Assembly (NCBI GenBank): GCA_022072445.1
Contig: JAJVHV010000030.1
Span: 5,971-69,970, forward strand
From: Phycisphaerae bacterium
GTDB taxonomy: Bacteria > Planctomycetota > Phycisphaerae > UBA1845 > Fen-1342
Direction of reading: 5' to 3'
Length of the DNA: 64,000 bases
Each line of letters begins with the position of its first letter. Positions within the stretch are counted from its first letter, which is position 1. The position numbers were made by a program, and so were the translations under genes. Below the pieces are notes generated by a model. It was not told the origin of the DNA. It did not search any database and saw nothing but the letters and a program-made list of their open reading frames with translations. Of this stretch, positions 51,179 to 64,000 are shown in pieces.

Positions 51179-54100
51179 CTACCTCACACTGAAATACCGC
51201 GCCGCGGGATGATGCGCGATCACCGCGCTGGTGCTCTGCTCCGGATCAAGCTGGTATTCGTCGCTGAGCGAAACGCCGATGCGCTGCGGCTCGAGCAACT
51301 GCATGAGCTTGGCCTGGTCTTCCAGGTTCGGGCAGGCCGGGTAGCCGAAGCTGAAGCGGCTGCCCTGGTAGCCCTGCTGAAACAGCTTCTGCCGCTCGCG
51401 GGCGTCGTCGCCGGCGATCCCAAGCTCCATCCGCACCTGCTTGTGCACGTATTCGGCCAGCGCCTCGGCGGTCTCGACGCCCAGGCCGTGCAGGAAGAGG
51501 TATTGCTGATACTCGTTGCGGGCGAACCACTCGCGGGCCACCTCGCTGACGCGCTGGCCGGCGGTCACCAGCGAAAGGGCGATCACGTCGGTCTCCCCGC
51601 TCTCGACCGGTCGCCAGAAGTCGGACAGACACCAGTGCGGCGGCTTCTGCTGCCGCGGGAAGGTGAAGCGGGCCACTTCACAGCCACGTTGCGACGGAGA
51701 CAAGGGCGAGCGAGAAGGTAGCCCGAATGAGCCACGGAGGGAGGGAGCGGCTCGATCGCTGGACAGGCCCGGAGAAGCGAGCGCAATCGGAGTCGATCCC
51801 GGCGCAGACGCCATCGACTCCAGTCCTTCCTTCCCCTTCGTGCCTCCGTGGCTTCCTGGCTTCGTGGCGCCTTCTCCTTTCGTGGCTTCGTGGCTTCGTG
51901 GCTTCGTGGCTGTGTCCCAGATGATCAGATCGTCGCCGTCGGAGTTGCAGGGCCAGTAGCCGTAGATGGCCTGCGGCCGGAGGATCGCCTCGCGCTCGCA
52001 ACGCGCGACCAGCTCGCGGTAGATCGGCCGCACGTCGCGGTCGATGTAGCGGCGGAAGTCATCGCCGGCGCGGCCGCGCTTGCGGAAGCCCCACTGCACC
52101 TGGAAGAGCATGATCTCGTTCATGTAGCCCAGAGCGGCCTTGAGCGGGATGTGCTCGAGCACGCGCGCACCCCAGAAGGGCGGCGCGGGAATGGCGTTGT
52201 CGATCGGGATTTCGGAGCGGCGGCGCGGCGGCGCGGCGGCGCGGGCGCGGTCAATCGCGCTGGCCGCGACGAGCGGGCCCTCGGCGACGGCGTCGTCATC
52301 CTCGGCGGTCTCGCCGATGGCGGCGAGGCCGAAGCGCTGCTCGGCGTCGAGGTCGAGGCGGCGCGGGGGTTGGGCGGCGGAGATCGACGCTGCTTCCAGG
52401 TCCGGGCGGTCCTTGCGTCCGAAGGAAACCCCTCCCTTACGGTCGGGGCTCGGCTGGGTGGCGGCGCTCGGCTGGGTGATTTCTCGTTCTTCCAACGCTT
52501 CGTCGCGTTGTCGCTTTTCCCCTTGGTCGTTTCGTCGCTCTGTCGCTTCGTCGCGTCGCCCCGTCGTCGCTTCGTCGCTTCGTCGCTTCGTCGCTGTGAT
52601 CTCCCCCATCAGCCGCAGACCCTCGAACGCGTCCTTCGCGTATGAGAGGCTTCCGGCGTAGAGCGGGCGCAGGTCGTTCTCGACGTAGCCGCGCGTCAGC
52701 GCGGCGCCGCCGAGGATGACCGGCACGCGGATGCCCTGCTCCTCGAGCACGAGCAGATCGTCGCGCATCACCAGCGTCGACTTCACCAGCAGGCCCGACA
52801 GCCCGATCGCGTCGGCGGCGTGCTCGCGCCAGGCGGCGATGACGTTGTTGATCGGCTGCTTGATGCCCAGGTTGAACACGCGGTAGCCGTTGTTGGTCAG
52901 AATGATGTCGACCAGGTTCTTGCCGATGTCGTGCACGTCGCCGCGGACGGTCGCCAGCACGATCCTGCCGCGCGACGTGTCGGCGGAGCGGTCCATGTGC
53001 GGCTCAAGCAGGGCGACGGCGGCTTTCATCGTCTCGGCGGACTTGAGCACGAAGGGGAGCTGCATCTGGCCCGAGCCGAAGAGGTCGCCGACGGTCTTCA
53101 TGCCGTCGAGCAGCAGGTTGTTGATGATGTCGAGCGGCGCGTAGGTCTGGAGCGCGACGGCGAGGTCGGCGTCGAGGCCGATTCTCTCGCCGTCGATGAT
53201 GCGGCGTTTGAGGCGCTCCTCGATGGGCAGGTCGGCGATCTTGACTTTCGTGCCGACTTGTTCGGTATCGGAGAAGAGGCCGATAAACCGAACCAGCGGG
53301 TCCTCATGTGGCACAGCCGCCCCCGGCTGTGAATGTGGCACAGCCGCCCCCGGCAGTGGCTGTGGCTGTGCCACATCGTAGATCAAATTCAGCGCCGCCT
53401 CCCAGCGCTCGTCGCTGATCTGATTGCGCGGCAGGATCTTGCTCGAATGCACGATCGCCGCGGTCAGGCCGCGCTGCCGGGCCTCGTGCAGGAACACAGA
53501 ATTGAGGACCGCGCGGGCGGCGGGGACAAGGCCGAAGCTGACGTTGCTGACGCCCAGGATCGACTGGCAGCGCGGGAAGCGCGTCATCACCGCTTCGATG
53601 CCGTCGAGCGTCTCGAGCGCCAGCCGCCGATCGGCCTCGTTGCCGGTCGTGATCGGGAATGTCAGGCAATCGAAGAAGATGTCCTCTTCGGCGACGCCGT
53701 ACTTGCGCGTGAGCAGGTCGTGAATGCGCGTGGCGATTTCGAGCTTGCGCTGCGCGGTCTTGGCCATGCTCTCGATCGGGTCTTCGTCGATCGTGAGCGC
53801 GACGACGGCGGCGCCGTATTGCCGCAGCAGCCGCGCGACGCGGGCCATCTTGACTTCGCCGTCCTCGAGGTTGACGGAGTTGACGATGCACTTGCCGCCG
53901 ATGAGCTTCAGGCCGGCTTCGATCACCTCGGGCTCGGTGCTGTCGAGCATGATGGGGACGTTGACGTCGACGGCGTAGCGGTCGGCGACGCGCGTCATGT
54001 CGGCGACGCCGTCGCGCCCGACGTAGTCGACGCACAGGTCGAGGACGTGCGCGCCTTCCTTCACCTGCTCGACGCCCACCTGCACCAGGCCCTCGATGTC

Positions 54101-55363
54101 GCCTTCCGCGAGCAGGCGTTTGAACTGCCGGCTGCCGTTGGTGTTGCTGCGCTCGCCGACGATCAGAAAGCTGTTGTCCTGGCGGTAGGGCATGGCCTGG
54201 TAAAGGCTGCTGCACGCCGCCTCACGAGATCGGCTCGGCGATGGGCCTAATGCAGAATGAAGAATGCAGAATGCAGAAGCGTCCTCCGTCGTCGAGCCGG
54301 GCTCAGGTTTCGTCGCCGGTGCGGGCGGATGCTCGGCGGACCCAGAAAGGCCGATTGCAGAGGCATCCGGCGACGAAGAACCGGTTTCTGCATTCCGCGT
54401 TCTGCATTCTGCATTGCTTTCTGCATTGCCGTGGAATCCGATCGCCTCCACCACCGCGCGCAGATGCGCCGGCGTCGTGCCGCAGCAGCCGCCGACGATC
54501 CGCACGCCGTCAACGTCGACGAACTCCTTCAGCCAGCGGGCCAGCTCGGCCGGCGCGAGCGGGAAGTGCGTACGCCCGCTGACGAGCTGCGGCAGGCCGG
54601 CGTTCGGCATCACGCTGATCGGACGCGTGCTGTTCCGCGCCAGATACCGCACGTGCTCGCTCATCTCCTGCGGCCCGGTGGCGCAGTTCAACCCGATTAC
54701 GTCGACTTCCGGATACGCCTCGATCGCCACCAGCGCGGCGGCGACGTCGGTGCCCACCAGCATCGTGCCGGTGGTCTCCATGGTTACCTGCACCATGAGC
54801 GGCAAGCGCTTGCCGGTTTTCTCGAACGCCGACAGCACGGCCCAGATCACGGCCTTGGCGTGCAGGATGTCCTGACACGTCTCGATCAGCATCGCGTCGC
54901 AGCCGCCGTCGATCAGCCCGCGGGCCTGCTCGCCGTAGCTCTCGAGCAGCCCGTCGTACGAAATCTGCCGCAGCGTCGGCAGCTTCGTCCCCGGACCGAG
55001 CGAGCCGACGACGAAGCGCGGCCGCGGCAGCGTCGAAAACGCCTCGCACGCCCGCCGCGCGATCTTCGCCGCCGCGACGTTGATCTCGTAGCAGCGGTCA
55101 GCCAGGCCGAACTCGGCCAGCACGTGCCGCATGCCGCCGAAGGTGTTGGTTTCGACCGCGTCGCAGCCGACGTCGAGAAAGCTGCGGTGAATTTGCTCGA
55201 CGGCGTCGGGGCGGGTGAGGTTCAGGACTTCGCAGCAGTTTTCGAGGCCGTTGTAGTCGCTCAGCGGCAGATCGAGCGCGTGGATGCTGGTGCCCATGGC
55301 GCCGTCGAGAAACACCACGCGCCGCCCGACGAGTTCCAGAAACGCCGATTCCGATCCGCGCAA
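51179..55363 (-). CDS. metH: cobalamin-dependent methionine synthase, 1394 aa with several in-frame low-complexity/repeat insertions
   Basis: All four modules recognisable: homocysteine-binding (GAMGTSI...GGCCGTTPAH), pterin-binding, B12-binding (DVHDIGKN) and AdoMet activation (FPRQ). About 160 aa longer than typical because of repeat insertions. Confidence 0.9.
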   Translation of the reverse strand: MRGSESAFLELVGRRVVFLDGAMGTSIHALDLPLSDYNGLENCCEVLNLTRPDAVEQIHRSFLDVGCDAVETNTFGGMRHVLAEFGLADRCYEINVAAAKIARRACEAFSTLPRPRFVVGSLGPGTKLPTLRQISYDGLLESYGEQARGLIDGGCDAMLIETCQDILHAKAVIWAVLSAFEKTGKRLPLMVQVTMETTGTMLVGTDVAAALVAIEAYPEVDVIGLNCATGPQEMSEHVRYLARNSTRPISVMPNAGLPQLVSGRTHFPLAPAELARWLKEFVDVDGVRIVGGCCGTTPAHLRAVVEAIGFHGNAESNAECRTRNAETGSSSPDASAIGLSGSAEHPPAPATKPEPGSTTEDASAFCILHSALGPSPSRSREAACSSLYQAMPYRQDNSFLIVGERSNTNGSRQFKRLLAEGDIEGLVQVGVEQVKEGAHVLDLCVDYVGRDGVADMTRVADRYAVDVNVPIMLDSTEPEVIEAGLKLIGGKCIVNSVNLEDGEVKMARVARLLRQYGAAVVALTIDEDPIESMAKTAQRKLEIATRIHDLLTRKYGVAEEDIFFDCLTFPITTGNEADRRLALETLDGIEAVMTRFPRCQSILGVSNVSFGLVPAARAVLNSVFLHEARQRGLTAAIVHSSKILPRNQISDERWEAALNLIYDVAQPQPLPGAAVPHSQPGAAVPHEDPLVRFIGLFSDTEQVGTKVKIADLPIEERLKRRIIDGERIGLDADLAVALQTYAPLDIINNLLLDGMKTVGDLFGSGQMQLPFVLKSAETMKAAVALLEPHMDRSADTSRGRIVLATVRGDVHDIGKNLVDIILTNNGYRVFNLGIKQPINNVIAAWREHAADAIGLSGLLVKSTLVMRDDLLVLEEQGIRVPVILGGAALTRGYVENDLRPLYAGSLSYAKDAFEGLRLMGEITATKRRSDEATTGRRDEATERRNDQGEKRQRDEALEEREITQPSAATQPSPDRKGGVSFGRKDRPDLEAASISAAQPPRRLDLDAEQRFGLAAIGETAEDDDAVAEGPLVAASAIDRARAAAPPRRRSEIPIDNAIPAPPFWGARVLEHIPLKAALGYMNEIMLFQVQWGFRKRGRAGDDFRRYIDRDVRPIYRELVARCEREAILRPQAIYGYWPCNSDGDDLIIWDTATKPRSHEATKGEGATKPGSHGGTKGKEGLESMASAPGSTPIALASPGLSSDRAAPSLRGSFGLPSRSPLSPSQRGCEVARFTFPRQQKPPHWCLSDFWRPVESGETDVIALSLVTAGQRVSEVAREWFARNEYQQYLFLHGLGVETAEALAEYVHKQVRMELGIAGDDARERQKLFQQGYQGSRFSFGYPACPNLEDQAKLMQLLEPQRIGVSLSDEYQLDPEQSTSAVIAHHPAARYFSVR
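53305..53375. repeat. 27-bp-period tandem duplication plus inverted partial copy inside metH
   Basis: ATGTGGCACAGCCGCCCCCGGC occurs twice (53305, 53332), then GGCTGTGCCACAT inverted at 53363; encodes PGAAVPHSQ/PGAAVPHED in MetH. Confidence 0.85.
54251..54427. repeat. heptamer-array-bounded inverted-repeat mini-element (MITE-like) inserted in frame in metH
   Basis: (TGCAGAA)4 at 54251-54278 and (TTCTGCA)n at 54386-54427 in inverted orientation, about 107 bp apart; 177 bp = 59 codons without stops in the metH frame. Confidence 0.8.
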
Positions 55364-56275: not shown

Positions 56276-56671
56276 GGGCGGCGCCTACCAGAACCCCGCA
56301 CGCGAGTGCGGCGCGGCCGAACCCAACTCGCATGGTGGGTTCGGTGTACTGCCTCGGAAATATTGCGTCCTATTGGCCGGTGCGAAACGCCGTCCGCACT
56401 GGCCGGAGGCCGATGCGGACCGGCCGGAGGCCAATGCTCCCCTTCGGAATACCGCACGGCATTTCTGAGGCACTACACCAGGCCAAGGGTGCGGACCTCG
56501 AATCATCGGCGGCGAAATCGGAATACCGATACGGGCACGCGGTTTCTGCGCGCTCCGGAAGGGCTGCGGTCGCCGCCGGCGCGCAAGTCGTTGTGCCGGC
56601 TGAACGAAGCGTTCCGCATACGGCGGGTTTTTGTAATGTCGCCAGTGCAGCGGTGAGGTACACTTCCAGCA

Positions 56672-57079
56672 ATGGAAACGTCCCCCGGCATCCTGGGTCG
56701 ATTGTCCGAAAAAGTGCTCGGTTGGATCGCGCTGGGCCTGCTCGTCGCGCTGGGAATCGCCATCTGGCAGACCCCCGCCGACACCAAGCAGGCCATCTGG
56801 AGTGGCGTCTGGCGCGCCACGGCGTGGCTTGCGATCGTCGCGACGTTGCCCTGGGCCAGCCGCCTCTTCATGGGTCGCGTGCTGGAGCAATCGTCGAACT
56901 GGGCCGGGGTGGCGCTGGTCGCCGCTTACTGCCTGGCGGACGTGATCGCGGCGGTGTGCCTGATGACGGTCTGGCCGGCGAGCGGTTGGGCCTGGTTCCT
57001 GAGCGCCGTCGCGCTGGCCATCGCAGGGACGTATAATTATCTGGTTTGCGAGTATGTCGCGGAACAATCGGGCCTATGA
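56672..57079 (+). CDS. small polytopic membrane protein
   Basis: Four predicted TM helices; immediately precedes the kinase gene. Confidence 0.5.
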   Translation: METSPGILGRLSEKVLGWIALGLLVALGIAIWQTPADTKQAIWSGVWRATAWLAIVATLPWASRLFMGRVLEQSSNWAGVALVAAYCLADVIAAVCLMTVWPASGWAWFLSAVALAIAGTYNYLVCEYVAEQSGL

Positions 57080-57122
57080 AGCCGATCTGTGAACAATGCG
57101 GGCGGCTTTGCGGGGTCGAGCG

Positions 57123-58196
57123 ATGAGCACGAAATATCAGACCGGGCTGCGCGTCAGCGAATACGTACTGGAAGAATGCGTCGGCAGCGGCGCGTTCGCC
57201 GAGGTTTGGCGCGCCCGGCATCACATTTGGGAGTCCGAACAGGTCGCGGTGAAACTGCCGCTCCAGCCCGAATTCGCGCGCTATCTGCGGCGCGAGGGCG
57301 CGGTGGTCCACGGCGTGCGGCACGCCAACGTCGTGCGCGTCCTGGGGATCGACCCGTACGGCGAGATTCCGTATCTGGTCATGGAGCTGGTGCGCGGTCC
57401 GTCGCTCAAAAGCGTGATCGTCGAGCATCGCACCGGCGTGCCGGTCGACCTGGCGCTGCGCGTTTTCCGCGGCATCCTGACCGGGTTGGCGGCCGCGCAC
57501 GAAGCGAATGTGATTCACCGCGACATCAAGCCGGGCAACATCCTGCTCGATCTCAATGGCAAGCCGCTGTCGGAGCTGCGCAGCGAGCAGGTGAAGCTGG
57601 GCGACTTCGGCTTCGGGCTGGCCGACGTCGACGCCATGCAGTCGATCGCGCAGTCGGCGTCGATCAGCCGCTCCGACGCTCTGGTCGGAACGATCGCGTA
57701 CATGGCCCCGGAGCTGCGCGACGGGCACGCGGCAGCCGACGAGAAGTCCGACCTGTACGCCGTCGGGGTGGTGCTCTTTGAGCTGCTGACCGGCGAGCGG
57801 CCGGCCGGCGCCGAGCTGCCCAGCAGTGTCCGGCCGGCGATCAGCCCGGCGCTCGACGAGCTATTCAAGAAACTCTATGCGCGGCACGACCGCCGCTACG
57901 CCTCGGCCAACGCCGTGCTGCACGACCTGGACGCGCGGGTGCCCGCCCCCGACGGGGCGCCCGGCGCGCCGCACCTGCCGCCCTTGCCCGAGTCGGGCCG
58001 CCCGCGTTCGTCGCGGGCGAACTGGACGTGCGGCTCGTGCCATCGGCCGGCCGATCCGGCCGACCAGTTCTGCATCCACTGCGGGGCCCAACTGGTCGAG
58101 CGCGTGCGGCGTTGTCCGGGCTGCGATGGGTTTCCCGGCGTGGACGATCGATTCTGCATTTTTTGCGGCGCGTCGCTGCCGCCCGTGACCACGTGA
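57123..58196 (+). CDS. Ser/Thr protein kinase with C-terminal double zinc ribbon
   Basis: GSGAFAEVW, VAVK, HRDIKPGNILL, DFG, APE motifs; C-terminal CGSCHR...CIHCG...CPGCDG...CIFCG. Confidence 0.85.
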   Translation: MSTKYQTGLRVSEYVLEECVGSGAFAEVWRARHHIWESEQVAVKLPLQPEFARYLRREGAVVHGVRHANVVRVLGIDPYGEIPYLVMELVRGPSLKSVIVEHRTGVPVDLALRVFRGILTGLAAAHEANVIHRDIKPGNILLDLNGKPLSELRSEQVKLGDFGFGLADVDAMQSIAQSASISRSDALVGTIAYMAPELRDGHAAADEKSDLYAVGVVLFELLTGERPAGAELPSSVRPAISPALDELFKKLYARHDRRYASANAVLHDLDARVPAPDGAPGAPHLPPLPESGRPRSSRANWTCGSCHRPADPADQFCIHCGAQLVERVRRCPGCDGFPGVDDRFCIFCGASLPPVTT

Positions 58197-58207
58197 GGTG
58201 ACGCGCG

Positions 58208-58504
58208 ATGCACGGCCAAGGCGTCATTGTCCTCTGGGTTTTCGGCCTGCTGTTCGTCGGCGTCATCGGCATCGCCATGCTGGTGCTTGTCGCCGTTCTG
58301 CGCGCCGGCGGCAGGATTTTCCGGCACGTCGGTTTGGCCATGGGCGAGACCGGCGGCCGCGGGTCGGCCCCCTCGGGTGCCGCGGGCCGGCCGCGCTTCT
58401 GCACGCGGCGCGGCTGCCTGCATCCCAACCGCGGCGCGGCCCGCTTCTGCGCCCGCTGTGGTCAGGCGCTCGGCGGCGGGTACGATACGGAACTGTATGG
58501 ATGA
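58208..58504 (+). CDS. small membrane protein with C-terminal zinc ribbon
   Basis: TM segment VIVLWVFGLLFVGVIGIAMLVLVAVL and CTRRGCLHP...CARCG. Confidence 0.5.
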   Translation: MHGQGVIVLWVFGLLFVGVIGIAMLVLVAVLRAGGRIFRHVGLAMGETGGRGSAPSGAAGRPRFCTRRGCLHPNRGAARFCARCGQALGGGYDTELYG

Positions 58505-59969
58505 GATCGCGCGACAGCGGCAGTTTGAGGAGCAGTTCCTCCAGCAGATCCGCGCCAAGGCCGCCGGCCTGACGCGCGGCACCCTGCCCGCCGACCGCGT
58601 CGTCGTCGAAAAGGTGCCCGACGGCATCGACGGCGTGCGGGCCACGCTGAGCCGCCTGGAGGTCTTCGATCACGAGCTGCTGCACCGCATGCCGGGCACG
58701 CAGGCCTGCCAGCTCAAGTTCACACGCTCGATGCTCGGCGGCCTGATGGAGCGGACCGTCTCGCGGCTGCGGGCCGTCGTGCTCGCGCCGGTCGCCGCGC
58801 TGGCCACCGGTCAGGCGCCCGGACCGGTGACCCGCGAGGACGTGCTCAACGCGCTGGCTCGCTACGACCTGATGCCGCGCGGCATGAGACCCACCGGCGT
58901 GGTCTTCGCCGCGCCCACCGGCTTCAGCGACAGCGCCCGCTCGCTGGTGAACGGGCCCGGTTCGCCTACGGTGATTCTGATGGGCGGCCGGGCCGACGGC
59001 GGCTGGGACGTGAGCATGTCCGATGCGGTCGCGAAGAGTCCCTGGGGCAAGCTCTTCGAGCTCGAAACGCAGGACGAGCTGGTCAAGCGCCTCGCGCATC
59101 ATCTCGACGAGTCCGCCGACCTCGTCGATTCTCGCGGACTGTCGATCGAGGAGCTGAGCGAGAAACTCGGCGTGGACCGCGACAAGACCGAGACCCTGGT
59201 GCGCAAACTGGCCCGCACCGACCCGCGCATCATGACCGTCGCCCACGACGGCCGAACGCACGTGTGCCGTACACCCTTCGCCGAGGAGGGCTCTTCCATG
59301 AGTCTCTGGAGCCGAGTTCGCAGACTGCTGCGGCTGAAGCCGACCGTCGCCGAGCAGGTGCGCGAGATGACCGCGCAGCGCGTCAAGCTGGAGCAGCAGC
59401 GCTTCGAGATCGACCGCGCGGTCAACAAGCTCCAGGACGAAGAGGTGCGCATCGTCAAGAGCGGGGCCGCCGCCACCACCGACGTCGAAAAACGCCAGCT
59501 TGCCAGCAAGCTCGTGCGCCTGCGGCGCGACCTGGGCCGGCAAAAGGCCCAGGCCGACGTGCTCACCAAACAGATCGACATCATCGGCACGCACCTGCAC
59601 CATCTGACGCTGGCCGAGCGCGGGCGCCGCATGGAACTGCCCAAGGCCGAGGAGCTGACGCGCGAGGCGGCCCAGGCCGAACAGGTCATGGCCGATCTCT
59701 CGGCCAACGCCGAACTGGCCGTGGGCATCGAAGTTGGCGGCGGGGCGCAGGCCGTGTCGGATGAGGAAGCGGCGATCCTCGAAGAATTCGCGGCGGCGGC
59801 GGGGACGACGCCGGTGAAGGAAACGCCCGCGGCGGCGCCGGCGGCGGGCGAATCGGGACGGGTGGCGGATGCCGGCCGGTCAGGCCCGGTCCGCGCACCC
59901 AGCGCAGCGCCGCCGGTGCCTGGTGCGGCGGCGTCGAAGCGTGAGTCGGCGAAGCCGGAGATGGGGTAG
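58497..59969 (+). CDS. fusion protein: N-terminal domain with winged-helix-like segment + C-terminal ESCRT-III/Snf7-like coiled-coil domain
   Basis: ATG 58497 overlaps the upstream stop (ATGGATGA). The C-terminal 200 aa follow the ESCRT-III helix pattern (LWSRVRRLLRLK...QVREMTAQRVKLEQQRFEIDRAVNKLQDEE...KRQLASKLVRLRRDLGRQKAQADVLTKQIDII...) with an acidic tail. Confidence 0.55.
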   Translation: MDEIARQRQFEEQFLQQIRAKAAGLTRGTLPADRVVVEKVPDGIDGVRATLSRLEVFDHELLHRMPGTQACQLKFTRSMLGGLMERTVSRLRAVVLAPVAALATGQAPGPVTREDVLNALARYDLMPRGMRPTGVVFAAPTGFSDSARSLVNGPGSPTVILMGGRADGGWDVSMSDAVAKSPWGKLFELETQDELVKRLAHHLDESADLVDSRGLSIEELSEKLGVDRDKTETLVRKLARTDPRIMTVAHDGRTHVCRTPFAEEGSSMSLWSRVRRLLRLKPTVAEQVREMTAQRVKLEQQRFEIDRAVNKLQDEEVRIVKSGAAATTDVEKRQLASKLVRLRRDLGRQKAQADVLTKQIDIIGTHLHHLTLAERGRRMELPKAEELTREAAQAEQVMADLSANAELAVGIEVGGGAQAVSDEEAAILEEFAAAAGTTPVKETPAAAPAAGESGRVADAGRSGPVRAPSAAPPVPGAAASKRESAKPEMG

Positions 59970-59984
59970 AGGGTTTGCAGAGGC

Positions 59985-60351
59985 GATGGACATGGCAAGT
60001 GCGCTGCCCACAGAGCTGCTGTTGCGTAAGCCCGTCGGCGAAGAAACTCTGCGTGAGCTTGTTCGCCGCATCGCCCAGCTTCGTAGCGACGCTTGCATCA
60101 TTCTGTTTGGGTCGCGGGCGCGCGGGGACGCACGGCCGGGGAGCGATCTTGATCTGATGGTTATCACGCAGGCGGATCGGAGTCCGCTGGCGATCGCGGG
60201 CGATCTCTACGCGGCACTGGCGGACCGTGATTTCGGGTTAGATATCGTCGTCATGCCGCGCGACCGCGTGCGGCGGGCACGAGACGGGTTCGATCCTTTT
60301 CTGAACGAGGTGCTCGCACAAGGCAGAGTCCTGCATGGCCGACTGCATTGA
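59985..60351 (+). CDS. minimal nucleotidyltransferase (MNT, Pol-beta superfamily)
   Basis: ILFGSRARGDARPGSDLDLMV (GS...D.D). Confidence 0.8.
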
Positions 60352-60724
60352 CTTTGAAGACTGGCTGGCCAAAGCGGAGGGAGATCGAGAAGGCGCCATG
60401 CTGCTGATGCGCGAATTCAGCAAATCTATCGCCGGCCTGATTGCCTTTTTGTGTCAGCAGTCGGTGGAGAAGTACCTCAAGGCGCTCCTGGTGCGTCAAC
60501 GAGTCTCTTTTCCTCGTACGCATGACCTGGCGGCGCTTGCGGCAGGCAGCTATCCGGACATCGCTCGAATTCAGCCATCGCTCGCGCGACTTCAGCCGTA
60601 TGCGGTTAATGTGCGATACCCTGGATTTGATCCGGAGCGCCCCGAATGCGAAGAGGCGATCGGCCATCTGGAACGAGTCCGGTCACATTGCCGCGAGCTG
60701 CTCGAATTGGGTGAGTGCGAATGA
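60335..60724 (+). CDS. HEPN domain protein (partner of the MNT)
   Basis: AVEKYLKALL...R-x6-H (RVSFPRTH); overlaps the MNT 3' end. Confidence 0.8.
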   Translation: MADCIDFEDWLAKAEGDREGAMLLMREFSKSIAGLIAFLCQQSVEKYLKALLVRQRVSFPRTHDLAALAAGSYPDIARIQPSLARLQPYAVNVRYPGFDPERPECEEAIGHLERVRSHCRELLELGECE

Positions 60725-61326
60725 ACTTCTTCACCTGGCTGACGACCAAACGCAAGACGCTCGCGACGATGAGCGCCGCCGAGCTGCGCGCCCAGGAGAT
60801 GATGCTCGAGAACGAGCGCGACCGCATGCTGAAGCGCATGGAGAAGCTGGCCGGCGAGAAGCACCAGGTGATCGAGCGCGGCGCGAAGGAACGCACGCCC
60901 GAGCTGCGTAAGACCTACGCGCAGCAGTTCGACCTGCTGCACACCGAGCAGATGATGCTCAGCCGGCACCTGAACATCCGCAGCAAGGAGCTGCTGACCG
61001 TCTCGCGGCTGCGCATGCTGCGCGAGACGGCCCAGCGGGCCGGCACCGGCATGGGTGCGTTCGGCACGATTCGCGAAAAGGATCTGGCGGTGATCGAGGC
61101 CCTGATCGAGAACGACAAGGTCACCACCGACATGTACCAGGAGCGGCTCGACGCGATCCTGCAGATCGGCGCGGCGGCGGACGAGGAGGCGACCGGCCTT
61201 TCGGCGGCGGCGGGCGAGCTGCTCAAGGTCTGGAACGACATGGACGCCGGGCTGATCTCCAACACGGCCGAAGCGTTCGACGAGGCGGAGAAGCGGGTGC
61301 GTGAGAGAAACAGAGCAGCGGAGTAG
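60721..61326 (+). CDS. ESCRT-III/Snf7-like coiled-coil protein
   Basis: MNFFTWLTTKRKT...AELRAQEMMLENERDRMLKRMEKLAGEKHQVIERGAK...MLSRHLNIRSKELLTVSRLRMLRETAQ... mirrors the Snf7 helix 1-4 layout; start ATGA-coupled to the HEPN gene. Confidence 0.55.
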   Translation: MNFFTWLTTKRKTLATMSAAELRAQEMMLENERDRMLKRMEKLAGEKHQVIERGAKERTPELRKTYAQQFDLLHTEQMMLSRHLNIRSKELLTVSRLRMLRETAQRAGTGMGAFGTIREKDLAVIEALIENDKVTTDMYQERLDAILQIGAAADEEATGLSAAAGELLKVWNDMDAGLISNTAEAFDEAEKRVRERNRAAE

Positions 61327-61332
61327 CCTCAT

Positions 61333-61701
61333 ATGCAACGACGCCCGAACCAGCGCGAAAACCGCGAGGCGCTCCGCGGCCCGATTGACAATCGCGTCAT
61401 TGGACAAATCGTAGACCGCTTGTCCAAGCGGTTGCCGGACTGCTGCATTGTGCTTTTCGGCTCCCGGGCCTACGGAACGCCGACCAGCCAGAGTGACGTT
61501 GATCTGCTGGTGGTGGCCCCGTCGCAACGTGACCCGTACGTGCTCTGCGGCGAACTACATCGCGAACTCAGTCCACGGGATTTCTCCGTTGATCTACTGG
61601 TCATGACGCCCGAGACTTTTCGTCAGCGCCGCTCACGGTTTGATCCGTTTTTTGCAGAACTCACCTCAAAGGGCCGCGTCCTGCATGGTCATCTCCCCTG
61701 A
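61333..61701 (+). CDS. minimal nucleotidyltransferase (MNT)
   Basis: VLFGSRAYGTPTSQSDVDLLV. Confidence 0.8.
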   Translation: MQRRPNQRENREALRGPIDNRVIGQIVDRLSKRLPDCCIVLFGSRAYGTPTSQSDVDLLVVAPSQRDPYVLCGELHRELSPRDFSVDLLVMTPETFRQRRSRFDPFFAELTSKGRVLHGHLP

Positions 61702-62071
61702 TGCGGCGGAATGGGTCGATCGCGCCGAAGGGGACGTGCGCGCGCTTCGGAAGCTCGACCCAGTCGAGGATCGTGTCGTCGTGGCGTTTCTCGCTCAGCA
61801 GGCCGCGGAGAAGTACCTGAAGGCCACTCTGGTCAACAGCCGGATATGCTTTCCAAAACCACACGACTTGGTCGCGCTCGTCTCCCTGTGTCGGCAGATC
61901 AGTGATGAATTCGAGTCGTTGGTGGGCGCTGCCGCCGTGTTGCAGCCCTTTGCGGTGGACGTGCGATATCCCGGACCCGCCCCCGGAGAGGCCGCCGTGC
62001 GGGCGGCGATTGAGAATATGGACGTGATCCGAACCTTTTGCCGCGAGAGGCTTGCGCTGCAAGCGCCCTGA
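61685..62071 (+). CDS. HEPN domain protein
   Basis: AAEKYLKATL...R-x6-H (RICFPKPH); overlaps the MNT 3' end. Confidence 0.8.
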   Translation: MVISPDAAEWVDRAEGDVRALRKLDPVEDRVVVAFLAQQAAEKYLKATLVNSRICFPKPHDLVALVSLCRQISDEFESLVGAAAVLQPFAVDVRYPGPAPGEAAVRAAIENMDVIRTFCRERLALQAP

Positions 62072-62095
62072 ACGGCGATCACGCGGAGATGTACG

Positions 62096-62713
62096 ATGGC
62101 CCTATTCAAGTCAAAAGAAGAGCGCCGCATCGAGCAGGACATCAAGATCCGCCAGGGCATCCGCCGGATCGAGAAGTCCATCAGCGAGCAGAGCAAGTTC
62201 ACCGACGAGTTCGTGAAGAACGCCCGGCATGCGAAACAGATCGGCGACAACGGGCAGTATGTCTTCATCCGCAACTCGCTCAAGAAGACCGCCACCATCA
62301 AGAAGCTGCTCGAACGGCAGCTTCTGAGCGTCAAAAACGCGCTGCTGATCAAACGCCAGGCCGAGGCCTCGGCCGATTTCGCCAACGCCATGAGCCTGAT
62401 GGCCCGCGAAGTGGGCAAGCTCTACGGCGACACCGATCTCGTGAAGACGCAGACCGACTGGGAGAAGGCGCTGCTGCAGAGCCAGACGATGGAGGAGCGC
62501 ATGCAGATGTTCCTCGATTCGATCGAAAGCGGCGCCGCGGCCGACATCGCCGCCTCGCCGACGGCCGCCGAAGCGATCAGCGACGACGAGATCGACCGCA
62601 TGATCGCGGTTGAGGAGCAGGTGGAGAAGGCGAAGGAGACGCAGCAGATGTCGGCGCTGCGGGCGGAGCTGGCGGAGCTGAAGGGGGAGAGTAAGGATAA
62701 GGAGACGAAGTGA
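62096..62713 (+). CDS. ESCRT-III/CHMP-like coiled-coil protein
   Basis: MALFKSKEERRIEQDIKIRQGIRRIEKSISEQSKFTDEFVKNARHAKQIGDNGQYVFIRNSLKK...ANAMSLMA matches the CHMP2/Snf7 layout (MSLFGK start, basic helix 1-2, acidic C-terminus). Confidence 0.6.
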   Translation: MALFKSKEERRIEQDIKIRQGIRRIEKSISEQSKFTDEFVKNARHAKQIGDNGQYVFIRNSLKKTATIKKLLERQLLSVKNALLIKRQAEASADFANAMSLMAREVGKLYGDTDLVKTQTDWEKALLQSQTMEERMQMFLDSIESGAAADIAASPTAAEAISDDEIDRMIAVEEQVEKAKETQQMSALRAELAELKGESKDKETK

Positions 62714-62850
62714 GGGCGGGCGTCTCCATGACTCAGGGACAGCTTGAATCGTGGGATGTCGTCCGCGGGCAGGTCCCGATTCTGGAACCAGATGAAGAAA
62801 GAGGACAAGTACAACGCGATTCATGAGCCGGATGACGACACGCCAGACGA

Positions 62851-63549
62851 GTGAGAGCATTGCCGATTAAGCCGCAGAAGTGGTTAGAGATGCTTGCTGA
62901 GGACTTGGTGCGCGACATCACGTCCAACCACTCGTTGCGCAGGTACACGACAAACGCGGATCTGCTTGGGGCGTGGGCTGAAGCGTGCGTACGAAACCTG
63001 ATTGCTCGCATGGTTCATCCGCTGCGAGTCTCACGCGGTGCGATCGTTTACGAAGGCATTTGCCCGGACGAAGTCCCAGAGCTGGATGCCATCGTGTGGA
63101 CCGCCGCACCCGTGCCGGCGGTCTTCGATCTTGGCGACTTTGCAATAGTACCGCGCGGCTCGGCCGTTGCTTTTCTTGAAGTCAAGCGAAGCGCGTACAC
63201 CGGCGTAAGCGACCGGATGCGCAAGACGCTCAACGGTACTGAGTGTCTCATCACACATTGCGAGCAAGAAAAGGGAACGCGCTTGGACGGAGAGGCTCTG
63301 GGTGTCGTCTGCATGAAGAGAGAGGACCAGAAACTCGACCGCACACTCCAAAGGCTCATGGACGACCAGAAGGCTGTTCTGCTCCTTGAGGAGAAGAATG
63401 GGTCCTGGAGGGCCATGGCGAGGGACGTACTTCGGCTTGTGAACTTTCTCGCGGCGGTGCGGGTCCGTGCGTTCGTCCTTGCATCCCAGCTCGGCGTAAA
63501 CACCGAGATTCTGGCTCCGGTACTAGGTAGCGACGGGACAGCGTCATGA
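62851..63549 (+). CDS. hypothetical protein, possible PD-(D/E)xK-like nuclease fold
   Basis: D...FLEVKRS spacing (D-x13-E-V-K); weak. Confidence 0.35.
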   Translation: MRALPIKPQKWLEMLAEDLVRDITSNHSLRRYTTNADLLGAWAEACVRNLIARMVHPLRVSRGAIVYEGICPDEVPELDAIVWTAAPVPAVFDLGDFAIVPRGSAVAFLEVKRSAYTGVSDRMRKTLNGTECLITHCEQEKGTRLDGEALGVVCMKREDQKLDRTLQRLMDDQKAVLLLEEKNGSWRAMARDVLRLVNFLAAVRVRAFVLASQLGVNTEILAPVLGSDGTAS

Positions 63550-63887
63550 TCGGTATCTGCACGCCCGTTCGAGTCACCGACGAACGGATCGCCGAAGTCG
63601 TGCGCCGCCTGGTCGAGGCGTTGCATCCGCAGCGCATCTACCTCTTCGGCTCGCATGCCTACGGAACGCCTCACGCGGACAGCGACGTCGACCTCCTTGT
63701 GCTGGTTGATGACGCCGAGCTGACGCAGGACGATCATGACCAGCGCGGCTATCGCTCTCTGCGCGGGATGTTTCTACCCATCGAGCTGCACATTCGAGGT
63801 CGGCAGGCGTTCGAACGGCGCGCGGTCGCTCCTCACAGTTTCGAGAACGAGATCCTGCGAAAGGGCAAGCTGCTCTATGCCGCGTGA
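63546..63887 (+). CDS. minimal nucleotidyltransferase (MNT)
   Basis: YLFGSHAYGTPHADSDVDLLV. Confidence 0.8.
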   Translation: MIGICTPVRVTDERIAEVVRRLVEALHPQRIYLFGSHAYGTPHADSDVDLLVLVDDAELTQDDHDQRGYRSLRGMFLPIELHIRGRQAFERRAVAPHSFENEILRKGKLLYAA

Positions 63888-64000
63888 TCCCGCTCTCATA
63901 CGCGAGTGGCTGCAGAAGGCCCGAAACGACCTCGAGACCGCGCGGCGCGCGATGGCCGAGAAGCCCATTCTCGATACCGGGTGCTTTCATTGCCAGCAGG
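63877..64000 (+). CDS. HEPN domain protein, 5' part only (runs off the window)
   Basis: MPRDPALIREWLQKARNDLETARRAM...; overlaps the MNT stop. Confidence 0.6.
   Translation, partial: MPRDPALIREWLQKARNDLETARRAMAEKPILDTGCFHCQQ

Follow-up and report, generated by a model that had tools for sequence, protein, structure and literature searches.

Recent reviews confine the pairing of ESCRT-III proteins with Vps4-like ATPases to archaea and eukaryotes, and according to a review from 2025, Vps4-like ATPases seem to be missing from bacteria (PMC7619361). PspA and Vipp1 are the only characterised bacterial relatives of ESCRT-III, with a function in membrane repair or stabilisation that is considered ancestral (PMC7619361), and SPFH, coiled-coil and zinc-ribbon proteins were described as partners of ESCRT and PspA systems (Makarova et al.). 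Binary fission in the Phycisphaerae proceeds without FtsZ, and what drives it is unknown (PMC6952346, PMC12673574). We analysed a stretch of 64,000 nt from a Phycisphaerae bacterium (the window), in which a sequence-only reading had proposed three paralogous genes of the ESCRT-III type, designated here A, B and C, forming an undescribed system; indeed, we found no description of the A/B/C operon in the literature searched. Since the pairing with Vps4 is confined by these reviews to archaea and eukaryotes, the operon is a testable candidate for membrane cutting or remodelling in Phycisphaerae.

Genes A (58497-59969), B (60721-61326) and C (62096-62713) are co-directional, with coordinates, strand and N-termini as first read, and all the features described below that lie within the window are likewise on the + strand. 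They belong to a larger operon of translationally coupled genes with the conserved order membrane protein, Ser/Thr kinase, zinc-ribbon protein, A, B, C, Vps4/CdvC-like AAA ATPase and WD40 protein, whose distal part was followed on locus L084, identical to window positions 56449-64000 (7552 of 7552 bases) and extending past the window end. The first conserved gene (56672..57079) encodes a 135-aa integral membrane protein with hydrophobic segments at residues 15-33 and 80-98 and no match in Pfam, NCBIfam or PADLOC. It is followed by a Hanks-type Ser/Thr protein kinase with a C-terminal double zinc ribbon (57096..58196; Pfam Pkinase, 7.2e-37, and DZR), with visible HRD and DFG motifs, and by a 98-aa protein (58208..58504) containing one transmembrane helix (residues 13-31) and a 4-Cys zinc ribbon, which scores 24.3 bits against NCBIfam 4Cys_prefix_kin (cut-off 24). 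The stop of this last gene, which occupies the same position in the cultured strain RAS1, overlaps the start of gene A (ATGGATGA). Downstream of C, a 219-aa protein (62890..63549; 232 aa from a GTG at 62851) is specific to this genome, with no family match in Pfam, NCBIfam or PADLOC and no counterpart in the other loci.

Gene C, a 205-aa protein of the CHMP/Snf7 type starting with MALFKSKEERR, is the best-supported ESCRT-III relative of the three. Its AlphaFold2 model, of medium confidence (pLDDT 75.5), has helices at residues 7-49, 52-109, 115-152 and 163-202, and the top Foldseek neighbours, with modest E-values (7e-3), were CHMP2A/CHMP3, Snf7, Asgard ESCRT-IIIB and CHMP1B, with PspA/Vipp1 ranking lower. 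Additionally, a 132-column hhalign alignment of the C profile with CHMP3 is in register from the first residue onwards (E 3.7e-5; controls, 0.1-0.8); relative to reversed or shuffled controls, this is an improvement of about 3,500-fold or more. As modelled, the fold of C is that of ESCRT-III and is nearer to CHMP/Snf7 than to PspA. At the sequence level none of the three proteins produced a match at any curated threshold: Pfam Snf7 (PF03357) was the recurrent family in the A, B and C families but always below its gathering score (the L086 orthologue of C has a weak precomputed match), PspA and other coiled-coil families appeared inconsistently, and there was no match to PspA_IM30 (PF04012). 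Searches of PDB profiles with two C profiles gave no matches whatever, and those with two B profiles gave unrelated chance-level matches and no ESCRT-III protein.

Gene A encodes a composite protein of 490 aa. An alpha/beta domain (aa 1-210, 58497..59126; pLDDT >93), with Foldseek matches to the Rpb5 N-domain and Bcav_2135, is a protein in its own right in other lineages (x446 of L086 and a 358-aa protein of L088; hhalign E 8e-7 and 1e-7). A winged-helix domain follows (aa 217-258, 59145..59270), predicted by AlphaFold2 as a helix-helix-strand-strand element resembling in Foldseek the winged helices of GntR/FadR, Z-alpha and ESCRT-II VPS22, and many orthologues show sub-threshold Pfam wHTH matches (HTH_24 in 28 of 100). 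The C-terminal half (pLDDT 87) has helices at 268-277, 284-325, 329-378, 385-410 and 420-434, which make up an ESCRT-III-like module of helix 0, hairpin and helices 4 and 5 (aa 266-434, 59292..59798; LWSRVRRLLRLK at residues 270-281). The protein ends in a disordered Pro/Ala-rich tail (59799..59969; pLDDT <50) with a terminal A-(R/K)-P-E-x-G peptide, in which P487 and E488 are conserved in 95% and 100% of 121 orthologues, respectively, and which might serve for docking.

Gene B encodes a 201-aa helical protein (N-terminus MNFFTWLTTKRK) with 453 close homologues and a family of 147 clusters at 50% identity. Profile comparison of its residues 1-108 with residues 265-376 of A (hhalign, 96.9%, E 1.5e-10) identifies B and the C-terminal module of A as true paralogues, and by this homology B would share the helix 0/hairpin/helix 4-5 layout and charge pattern of the module. 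Conversely, C showed no significant sequence or profile similarity to A or B (best E 1.7e-3, 46 columns), so that the proposed paralogy holds for two of the three genes, while the helical-hairpin layout holds for C and the C-terminal half of A from their models and for B through its homology to A. All three combine a basic hairpin with acidic distal helices. Structure searches and profile controls did not separate A and B from generic helical hairpins, and their membership of ESCRT-III is therefore unproven; the interpretation given by the sequence-only reading is supported in part.

The three genes do not form a contiguous array either, because A/B and B/C are split by MNT-HEPN pairs. The first pair (MNT, 59986-60351; HEPN, 60335-60724; Pfam NTP_transf_2 1.3e-10 and HEPN 2.8e-19) is placed so that the stop of its HEPN gene overlaps the start of B (ATGA). 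The second (MNT, 61333-61701; HEPN, about 61685-62071; from Pfam matches and the L084 gene calls) is 42% and 39% identical to the first, and a third MNT (63546-63887) precedes a HEPN gene that starts at 63877, is cut by the window end and continues on L084. In about 20 of 80 species, similar pairs lie within the operon or follow it. However, the MNT-HEPN genes are absent from most orthologous operons, including that of RAS1, which lacks the pair between A and B; the pairs are thus insertions that lie outside the conserved system.

A Vps4/MIT-like AAA ATPase, which the sequence-only reading had suggested looking for, is encoded on L084 after the third HEPN gene, about 1.6 kb beyond C and outside the window (window-equivalent 64305-65447). 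Its MIT-like N-terminus is followed by a single AAA cassette and a Vps4_C helix (Pfam AAA, 6.9e-39; AAA_lid_3; Vps4_C, 24.0 bits against a cut-off of 21.3), and the protein shares 34% identity with yeast Vps4 in an alignment that includes the C-terminal helix. The N-terminal profile gave full-length matches to the MIT domains of VPS4A/B, chitin synthase and calpain-7 (E 0.004-0.2), a sub-significant likeness mixed with TPR matches. The enzyme scored 203 bits with Cdc48 D2 and 191 bits with Vps4, and in four other lineages the AAA protein adjoining B scored higher on yeast Vps4 than on Cdc48.

The search for the triad in relatives showed that the larger operon is kept in the majority of the roughly 80 Phycisphaerae species covered. 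Counting only loci with enough flank, we found the membrane protein in 59/69, the kinase in 65/70, A in 69/75, B in 74/78, the AAA ATPase in 52/68 and the WD40 protein in 42/59; the ATPase gene was not within about 8 kb in the remaining 16 loci, RAS1 among them. Gene C is near-universal in the class, occurs in some species without the rest of the operon, and is the most conserved member (68-83% identity across 82 loci). Proteins of the A N-domain, B and C types co-occur with AAA and WD40 proteins in four other bacterial lineages, often with kinases and zinc ribbons (kinases flank the variant clusters L086 and L090).

The explanation we favour, at about even odds, is that A, B and C are parts of a conserved bacterial machine for membrane remodelling that works on the ESCRT-III plus Vps4 principle. 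These soluble helical-hairpin proteins, each with a short hydrophobic and basic N-terminal motif, would assemble into a composite polymer on the cytoplasmic membrane. The main filament former would be C, which is the best conserved subunit and the one most like CHMP, and A would serve as an adaptor or nucleator by means of its additional N-terminal domain and its winged helix, an element that CdvB carries too. Through its MIT-like domain the ATPase would bind the subunits at their conserved C-terminal peptides and then extract them through its pore (SKWVGE loop), leading to turnover or constriction; the co-transcribed kinase could set the timing, and three small membrane proteins and the WD40 protein might anchor or scaffold the assembly. 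Given the spread of the operon across Phycisphaerae and the conservation of C between species, we take the role to be constitutive, and cytokinesis or membrane scission in these FtsZ-less bacteria would be the leading candidate.

The same machine could instead be, although we think it rather unlikely, a PspA/Vipp1-like system for envelope stress or membrane maintenance (repair, invagination, vesicles) with no role in cytokinesis, its polymer coating or tubulating damaged or curved membrane and being recycled by the ATPase. The extensive membrane invaginations of Planctomycetes, the occurrence of cluster variants in other lineages of unknown division mode, and a 528-aa protein of the L086 cluster with a zinc ribbon at its end would all suit such a function, as would the precedent of PspA and Vipp1. 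However, C resembles CHMP/Snf7 and not PspA, no PspF/PspBC-type partners appeared at the locus in Pfam and NCBIfam scans, and the conservation and near-universal presence of C speak more, if not decisively, for a core function than for an accessory stress response. That the operon is not ESCRT-like at all seems improbable to us: A and B would be generic coiled-coil scaffold or signalling proteins, C convergent and the ATPase a Cdc48-type unfoldase for other substrates, within a kinase-centred signalling or quality-control module. The in-register CHMP3 alignment, the specifically ESCRT-III neighbours of C and the recurrence of Snf7 in all three families argue against it, as do the single cassette, MIT-like domain and Vps4_C helix of the ATPase, unlike double-cassette Cdc48, and the linkage of several hairpin proteins of about 200 aa to such an ATPase in five lineages. 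Finally, the idea of a defence machine was not borne out, and an anti-phage or toxin-antitoxin-linked system with the MNT-HEPN pairs as functional partners is very improbable. Three such pairs are interleaved and translationally coupled with the operon genes, and the kinase matches kinase-containing defence models in PADLOC, but what is matched there is no more than the generic kinase domain. PADLOC gave no match for A, B or C, the pairs are absent from most orthologous operons, and synteny is class-wide as opposed to the patchy spread typical of defence islands.

Compared with known systems, the operon shares with PspA/Vipp1 (IM30) a bacterial host, helical hairpins and a predicted N-terminal membrane-binding helix, probably within the same superfamily, and PspA is often encoded beside winged-helix proteins (Makarova et al.). 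It differs in having three different subunits instead of one and a Vps4-like ATPase, and in lacking similarity to E. coli PspA (E 0.14-0.5). With eukaryotic and Asgard ESCRT-III (CHMP2A/CHMP3, Snf7/CHMP4, ESCRT-IIIA/B) C shares the order and lengths of its helices, its N-terminus in the form MGLFKSKEE recalls MGLFGKTQEK of CHMP3, and its C-terminal helix (LRAELAxLKG) may loosely resemble a MIM1 motif; the combination of an ATPase with two distinct classes of subunit, B-type and C-type, is also reminiscent of the Asgard two-subunit system. However, similarity to these proteins stays under every curated threshold, ESCRT-I, ESCRT-II, a ubiquitin link and Vta1 are lacking here, and the ATPase is as distant from Vps4 as from Cdc48 D2. 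The archaeal Cdv system (CdvA, CdvB/B1/B2 and CdvC; Sulfolobales and other TACK) differs in its host, in CdvA, as Pfam scans revealed no CdvA-like or PRC-barrel protein here, and in its partners, which here include a conserved Ser/Thr kinase, zinc-ribbon membrane proteins and a WD40 protein; in gene A the winged helix precedes the hairpin module and follows an extra alpha/beta domain, and the ATPase scores 239.9 bits with the NCBIfam CdvC model, far below the equivalog cut-off of 650 bits. Nevertheless, this match covers nearly the whole AAA part (model positions 80-366 of 370), and both systems combine several ESCRT-III-type genes with one Vps4-type AAA ATPase without the eukaryotic beta domain, include one paralogue with a winged helix (CdvB there, A here), and reside in hosts without FtsZ that divide by fission.

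A row of co-directional genes on the + strand spans 56.6–64.0 kb of the window; exact protein matches carry the locus tags CHACPFDD_03403 to 03409 of a Phycisphaerae MAG. The row opens with genes for a 135-aa membrane protein (56672–57079), a Hanks-type Ser/Thr kinase that bears a double zinc ribbon (57096–58196) and a 98-aa single-pass membrane protein that has a zinc ribbon (58208–58504). These are followed by gene A (58497–59969, 490 aa), a first pair of genes for an MNT nucleotidyltransferase (NTP_transf_2) and a HEPN protein (59986–60724), gene B (60721–61326, 201 aa), a second MNT-HEPN pair (61333–62071), gene C (62096–62713, 205 aa), a gene for a 219/232-aa protein (62851–63549; gene call, 62890–63549) and a third MNT-HEPN pair, which starts at 63546 and crosses the window end at 64000. 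The junction between the zinc-ribbon gene and gene A is translationally coupled (ATGGATGA). By sequence, A, B and C are soluble, and three small membrane proteins accompany them in the operon. A sequence-only reading had described A, B and C as a triad of paralogous ESCRT-III (Snf7/CHMP)-like genes; their coordinates and quoted N-termini were correct, and the three-gene array is real and better than chance. The unit to which they belong is larger, however: an operon of at least eight genes that includes a Vps4-like ATPase past the window.

Logan contig L084 is identical to window 56449–64000 in 7552 of 7552 bases and continues beyond the window end, with the third MNT-HEPN pair running to about 64302 in window-equivalent positions. 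Directly after its HEPN gene, on the + strand, lies the gene for the Vps4-like AAA ATPase (window-equivalent 64305–65447); the sequence-only reading had proposed to seek a Vps4/MIT-like AAA ATPase elsewhere in the genome, and this candidate lies in the same operon. It is followed by genes for a 92-aa single-pass membrane protein (L084:9070–9348, window-equivalent from about 65518) and for a WD40 protein (L084:9345–10412, to window-equivalent about 66860). We clustered all ORFs of 82 orthologous loci (80 GTDB species representatives, the cultured Phycisphaerae strain RAS1 and a second contig repeating the RAS1 region), which revealed two more conserved + strand genes downstream of C. The first, of about 375–380 aa, encodes a protein with Pfam AAA (6.9e-39), AAA_lid_3 and Vps4 C-terminal domains. 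The conserved WD40 protein is of about 590 aa (e.g., L005:10585–12354); in a PDB profile search its C-terminal half is a WD40 propeller (2ymu, E 4e-19), while Pfam returned nothing for the protein and its N-terminal half had no match of any kind.

The ATPase has a single classic-clade AAA cassette, with the Walker A/B motifs GPPGTGKT and IFIDE and a pore loop 1 of the K-W/Y-x-G-E type, SKWVGEAE. It is 34% identical to yeast Vps4, with the C-terminal helix aligned and a gap opposite yeast residues about 350–400, where the eukaryotic beta domain is absent. For Vps4_C (PF09336; cut-off, 21.3 bits), scores were 24.0 bits in the L004 orthologue, 22.5 in L089b and 14.9–15.6 in L086 and L088a, and the domain was graded weak in the window organism's own ATPase. 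The NCBIfam CdvC model scored 239.9 bits over positions 80–366 of 370, on par with CDC48 (242.2 bits) and above PAN and FtsH, all of them below curated cut-offs; likewise, with phmmer the window organism's ATPase scored 203 bits against Cdc48 D2 versus 191 against yeast Vps4. For MIT domains, the profile of its first 85 residues gave matches that covered the full length in one stretch (chitin synthase 2mpk, E 0.0044; VPS4B, 0.012–0.022; VPS4A; calpain-7), but designed TPR repeats scored higher through repeat summation. Pfam MIT was detected in one of 14 family members (E 0.0076), and the L088b ATPase aligns to yeast Vps4 starting at residue 15. Because of the CdvC and Cdc48 scores, the Vps4 alignment, the pore loop and the MIT-like matches, we designate this protein Vps4/CdvC-like in architecture and a candidate member of that family.

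The AlphaFold2 model of C (pLDDT 75.5) predicts helices at residues 7–49, 52–109, 115–152 and 163–202, corresponding to the ESCRT-III core fold, a hairpin of helix 1 and helix 2/3 followed by helices 4 and 5. Foldseek comparisons of this model against the PDB retrieved first CHMP2A/CHMP3 (7zcg), Snf7 (5fd9/5fd7), Asgard ESCRT-IIIB (9ftl) and CHMP1B (6tz9), with the ESCRT-III matches at probabilities of 0.99–1.0 and E values of 7e-3 to 0.1, whereas Vipp1/PspA entries ranked fifth and lower (probability 0.09–0.66). A diverse C profile matched CHMP3 (E 3.7e-5; 132 aligned columns, beginning at residue 1) and Snf7 (E 4.9e-3) better than reversed or shuffled controls did (E 0.08–0.8); the CHMP3, Snf7 and Vps4 query sequences were checked against PDB chains, and those of Vps24 and Shrub were taken from printed alignments. 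A C orthologue from another lineage has a precomputed weak Snf7 match, and the LRAELxxLK helix at the C-terminus of C is invariant. With the structural ranking and the CHMP3 profile in agreement, we consider with moderate confidence that C is an ESCRT-III protein of the CHMP/Snf7 kind, as the sequence-only reading had it.

In Pfam scans, Snf7 (PF03357; gathering score, 27.3 bits) was the recurrent sub-threshold family: A from the window scored 12.7 bits, B and C from the window had no Snf7 match, and sub-threshold matches occurred in 19 of 100 sequences for A (best E 0.019), 13 of 121 for C (0.0072) and three of 54 for the B family (2.5e-4). Thus, the Snf7 search that the sequence-only reading had suggested gave no match at gathering score for A, B or C, and the family consensus sequences matched neither Snf7 nor PspA. 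In PDB sequence-profile searches, two C profiles produced no matches, and two B profiles only unrelated, chance-level matches, with no ESCRT-III protein among them. PspA_IM30 (PF04012), the alternative to Snf7 in that suggestion, was absent from every scan of the three families and their consensus sequences, and hhalign against E. coli PspA gave E 0.16 for B and 0.5 and 0.22 for C. A PspA/Vipp1 identity for C was accordingly rejected, on the lack of a PspA_IM30 match and on structural neighbors that were not PspA/Vipp1 first.

The claimed paralogy of the three proteins held only in part. Pairwise BLASTP among A, B and C detected no significant similarity, and hhalign with shallow alignments gave a weak A-B signal. 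With a diverse B alignment, however, built from the 147 clusters (50% identity) to which an exhaustive profile search led, B matched residues 265–376 of A with a probability of 96.9% (E 1.5e-10), over the short N-terminal helix and the entire hairpin; B and the C-terminal module of A (aa 266–434) are therefore genuine paralogues. The C profile showed no similarity to A, and that to B (E 0.04 to 1.7e-3) was confined to the helix 3–4 region; by profile comparison, C is a family separate from A and B.

The ESCRT-III layout also claimed for A and B fits in some respects. The model of A (pLDDT 87) shows helices at 268–277, 284–325, 329–378, 385–410 and 420–434 and then a disordered tail, which is the expected order. 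A basic N-terminal core and an acidic C-terminal region (autoinhibitory in the ESCRT-III family) are found in all three proteins: the hairpin has a net charge of +11 in C, +6 in the A module and +4 in B, and helices 4–5 have −9, −10 and −7, respectively; they also have in common a hydrophobic and basic N-terminal motif. The B profile, however, matched CHMP/Snf7 no better than controls (E 0.12–0.25), and Foldseek with the full-length model of A, dominated by winged-helix regulators, was uninformative on the hairpin module. ESCRT-III membership of A and B is thus unproven. The first 258 residues of A (window 58497–59270) are confidently modelled as an N-terminal alpha/beta domain plus a winged helix, with an invariant loop R165-x-D-G-G-W170; Foldseek neighbors of this region include the Rpb5 N-domain, SPARTA TIR-APAZ and ESCRT-II VPS22.

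Searching related Planctomycetota for the three genes, as the sequence-only reading had advised, showed that the majority of the roughly 80 Phycisphaerae species examined keep the operon. C, its best conserved member (68–83% identity, median 76%), is encoded by at least 209 GTDB species representatives; the 80 listed carriers are labelled Phycisphaerae or Planctomycetota except for one Hyphomicrobiaceae and one 'uncultured bacterium'. Among loci with enough flank, and with median identities to the window protein in brackets, B was present in 74 of 78 (66%), A in 69 of 75 (51%), the kinase in 65 of 70 (55%), the 135-aa membrane protein in 59 of 69 (49%), the AAA ATPase in 52 of 68 (70%) and the WD40 protein in 42 of 59 (44%). 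Conservation of the set is not uniform: C is solitary in some species, and 16 of the 68 loci have no ATPase gene within about 8 kb. Pairing with a Vps4-type ATPase is the defining feature of archaeal ESCRT systems (PMC7619361), and the ATPase gene follows C in the remaining loci and in the window organism.

Remote B relatives sit in similar clusters in bacteria beyond Phycisphaerae. Contig L086 ('bacterium' GCA_022072055.1) contains genes for a protein with the A N-domain, B, AAA, C, the kinase and the zinc-ribbon protein, and L090 those for B, AAA, C and the kinase. In L088, genes for a WD40-family protein and an A-N-domain protein are followed, after a 1.5-kb gap, by those for an A-module-like protein, two paralogues of B, an AAA protein, C and another AAA protein; L089 has the same succession of genes except that a full A-like protein stands in place of the A-N-domain protein. 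In all four clusters the AAA gene adjoins B-type and C-type genes, and this recurrence indicates that their association is ancient. The AAA protein beside B in these lineages has the pore loop SKYFGES, and yeast Vps4 outscores Cdc48 D2 for such ATPases (e.g., 161.6 vs. 123.6 bits, with the alignment beginning in the MIT region). The two AAA genes of L088 (8613–9851 and 10508–11746) both encode the SKYFGES loop, whereas those of L089 (9225–10430 and 11079–12215) are of two types, one with SKYFGES and nearer yeast Vps4, the other with SKWVGES and nearer Cdc48 D2, like the single Phycisphaerae ATPase. Homologues of the about-590-aa WD40 protein head both clusters.

The three MNT-HEPN pairs are wedged in the intergenic gaps of the operon, one of them translationally coupled to B (ATGA overlap). 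In RAS1 the kinase gene, the zinc-ribbon gene, A, B and C follow one another immediately, uninterrupted by MNT-HEPN genes, and we therefore consider the pairs as insertions. The first 58 kb of the window contain no such pair; in about 20 of 80 other species, comparable pairs lie within the operon or immediately behind it, and never upstream. A repeat search around the insertions found paralogous coding similarity only, and no insertion scars. Pfam, NCBIfam and PADLOC gave no match for the 219/232-aa protein, and orthologous loci have no counterpart; its gene probably arrived with the third pair. A four-helix-bundle gene of the 23S_rRNA_IVP family (PF05635, 7.3e-28) fills the B-C gap, in place of MNT-HEPN, in 22 of the 82 loci (e.g., L005:7403–8011), which suggests that small genes have landed in this gap repeatedly. 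Unrelated to the operon, a 1394-aa ORF on the − strand (51179–55363), judged by translation alone, resembles a cobalamin-dependent methionine synthase into which several long stretches of low complexity are inserted.

The system is known here from genes, alignments and predicted structures, and its role is that of a candidate. On the cytoplasmic membrane, A, B and C would assemble into a composite polymer of the ESCRT-III-like kind, in which A, by means of its N-terminal domain and its winged helix, would be the adaptor; the ATPase would dock on conserved C-terminal peptides, for which the LRAELxxLK helix of C and the ARPExG end of A are candidates, and remodel the polymer, while the kinase would control timing. 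We hold the chances of this mechanism, in a constitutive role for which cytokinesis is the leading candidate, to be about even. Phycisphaerae are free-living and divide by binary fission without FtsZ, and the driver of their division is recognized as still to be found (PMC6952346, PMC12673574). The more specific proposal that the operon is their FtsZ-independent, Ser/Thr-kinase-regulated cytokinesis machinery, and so corresponds in bacteria to the Cdv/ESCRT-III-Vps4 division ring of archaea, is tentative and less likely than not.

The same machine could instead serve stress repair or vesiculation, which seems clearly less probable than the leading mechanism. A non-ESCRT coiled-coil/unfoldase module, a reading that the ranking of C among CHMP/Snf7 structures does not favor, is unlikely. 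The main caveat is that the homology evidence is throughout sub-threshold or structural. The sequence-only reading of the array as ESCRT-III (CHMP)-like holds, with moderate confidence, for C; for A and B it is unproven, and taken as a whole it is too narrow, the unit being an operon and not a triad. The defence machine that it offered as one possibility is very improbable because A, B and C lack any match in PADLOC or NCBIfam.

Current reviews hold that bacteria have only the ESCRT-III superfamily's PspA/Vipp1 branch and that the Vps4-like ATPase, hence the complete ESCRT-III/Vps4 system, occurs in archaea and eukaryotes only (PMC10936438, PMC7619361), the ATPase appearing absent from bacteria in a 2025 review (PMC7619361). 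Reviews on planctomycetes leave division without FtsZ unexplained and do not mention ESCRT, and we found no prior description of the operon in the literature searched, whose coverage was short of all journals. A conserved bacterial operon in which a Vps4/CdvC-like ATPase accompanies CHMP-like and related hairpin proteins would alter this picture and would matter for ideas on how Vps4 and ESCRT arose. If the cytokinesis proposal is true, the related clusters in other bacteria would show that ESCRT-III plus Vps4-type machines extend beyond archaea and eukaryotes. Likewise, the question of the division driver becomes one of concrete experiments on named genes, with culturable strains at hand.

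Compared with bacterial PspA/Vipp1, the operon differs in sequence, in structural ranking, in the number of subunits and in the presence of an ATPase. The closest system is archaeal Cdv: both combine several ESCRT-III-like proteins, of which one carries a winged helix, with a Vps4-like ATPase devoid of the beta domain, in cells that lack FtsZ. The operon differs from Cdv in that it has no CdvA, the PRC barrel characteristic of that protein having no Pfam match among the operon proteins scanned, and in that it has kinase, zinc-ribbon and WD40 partners.
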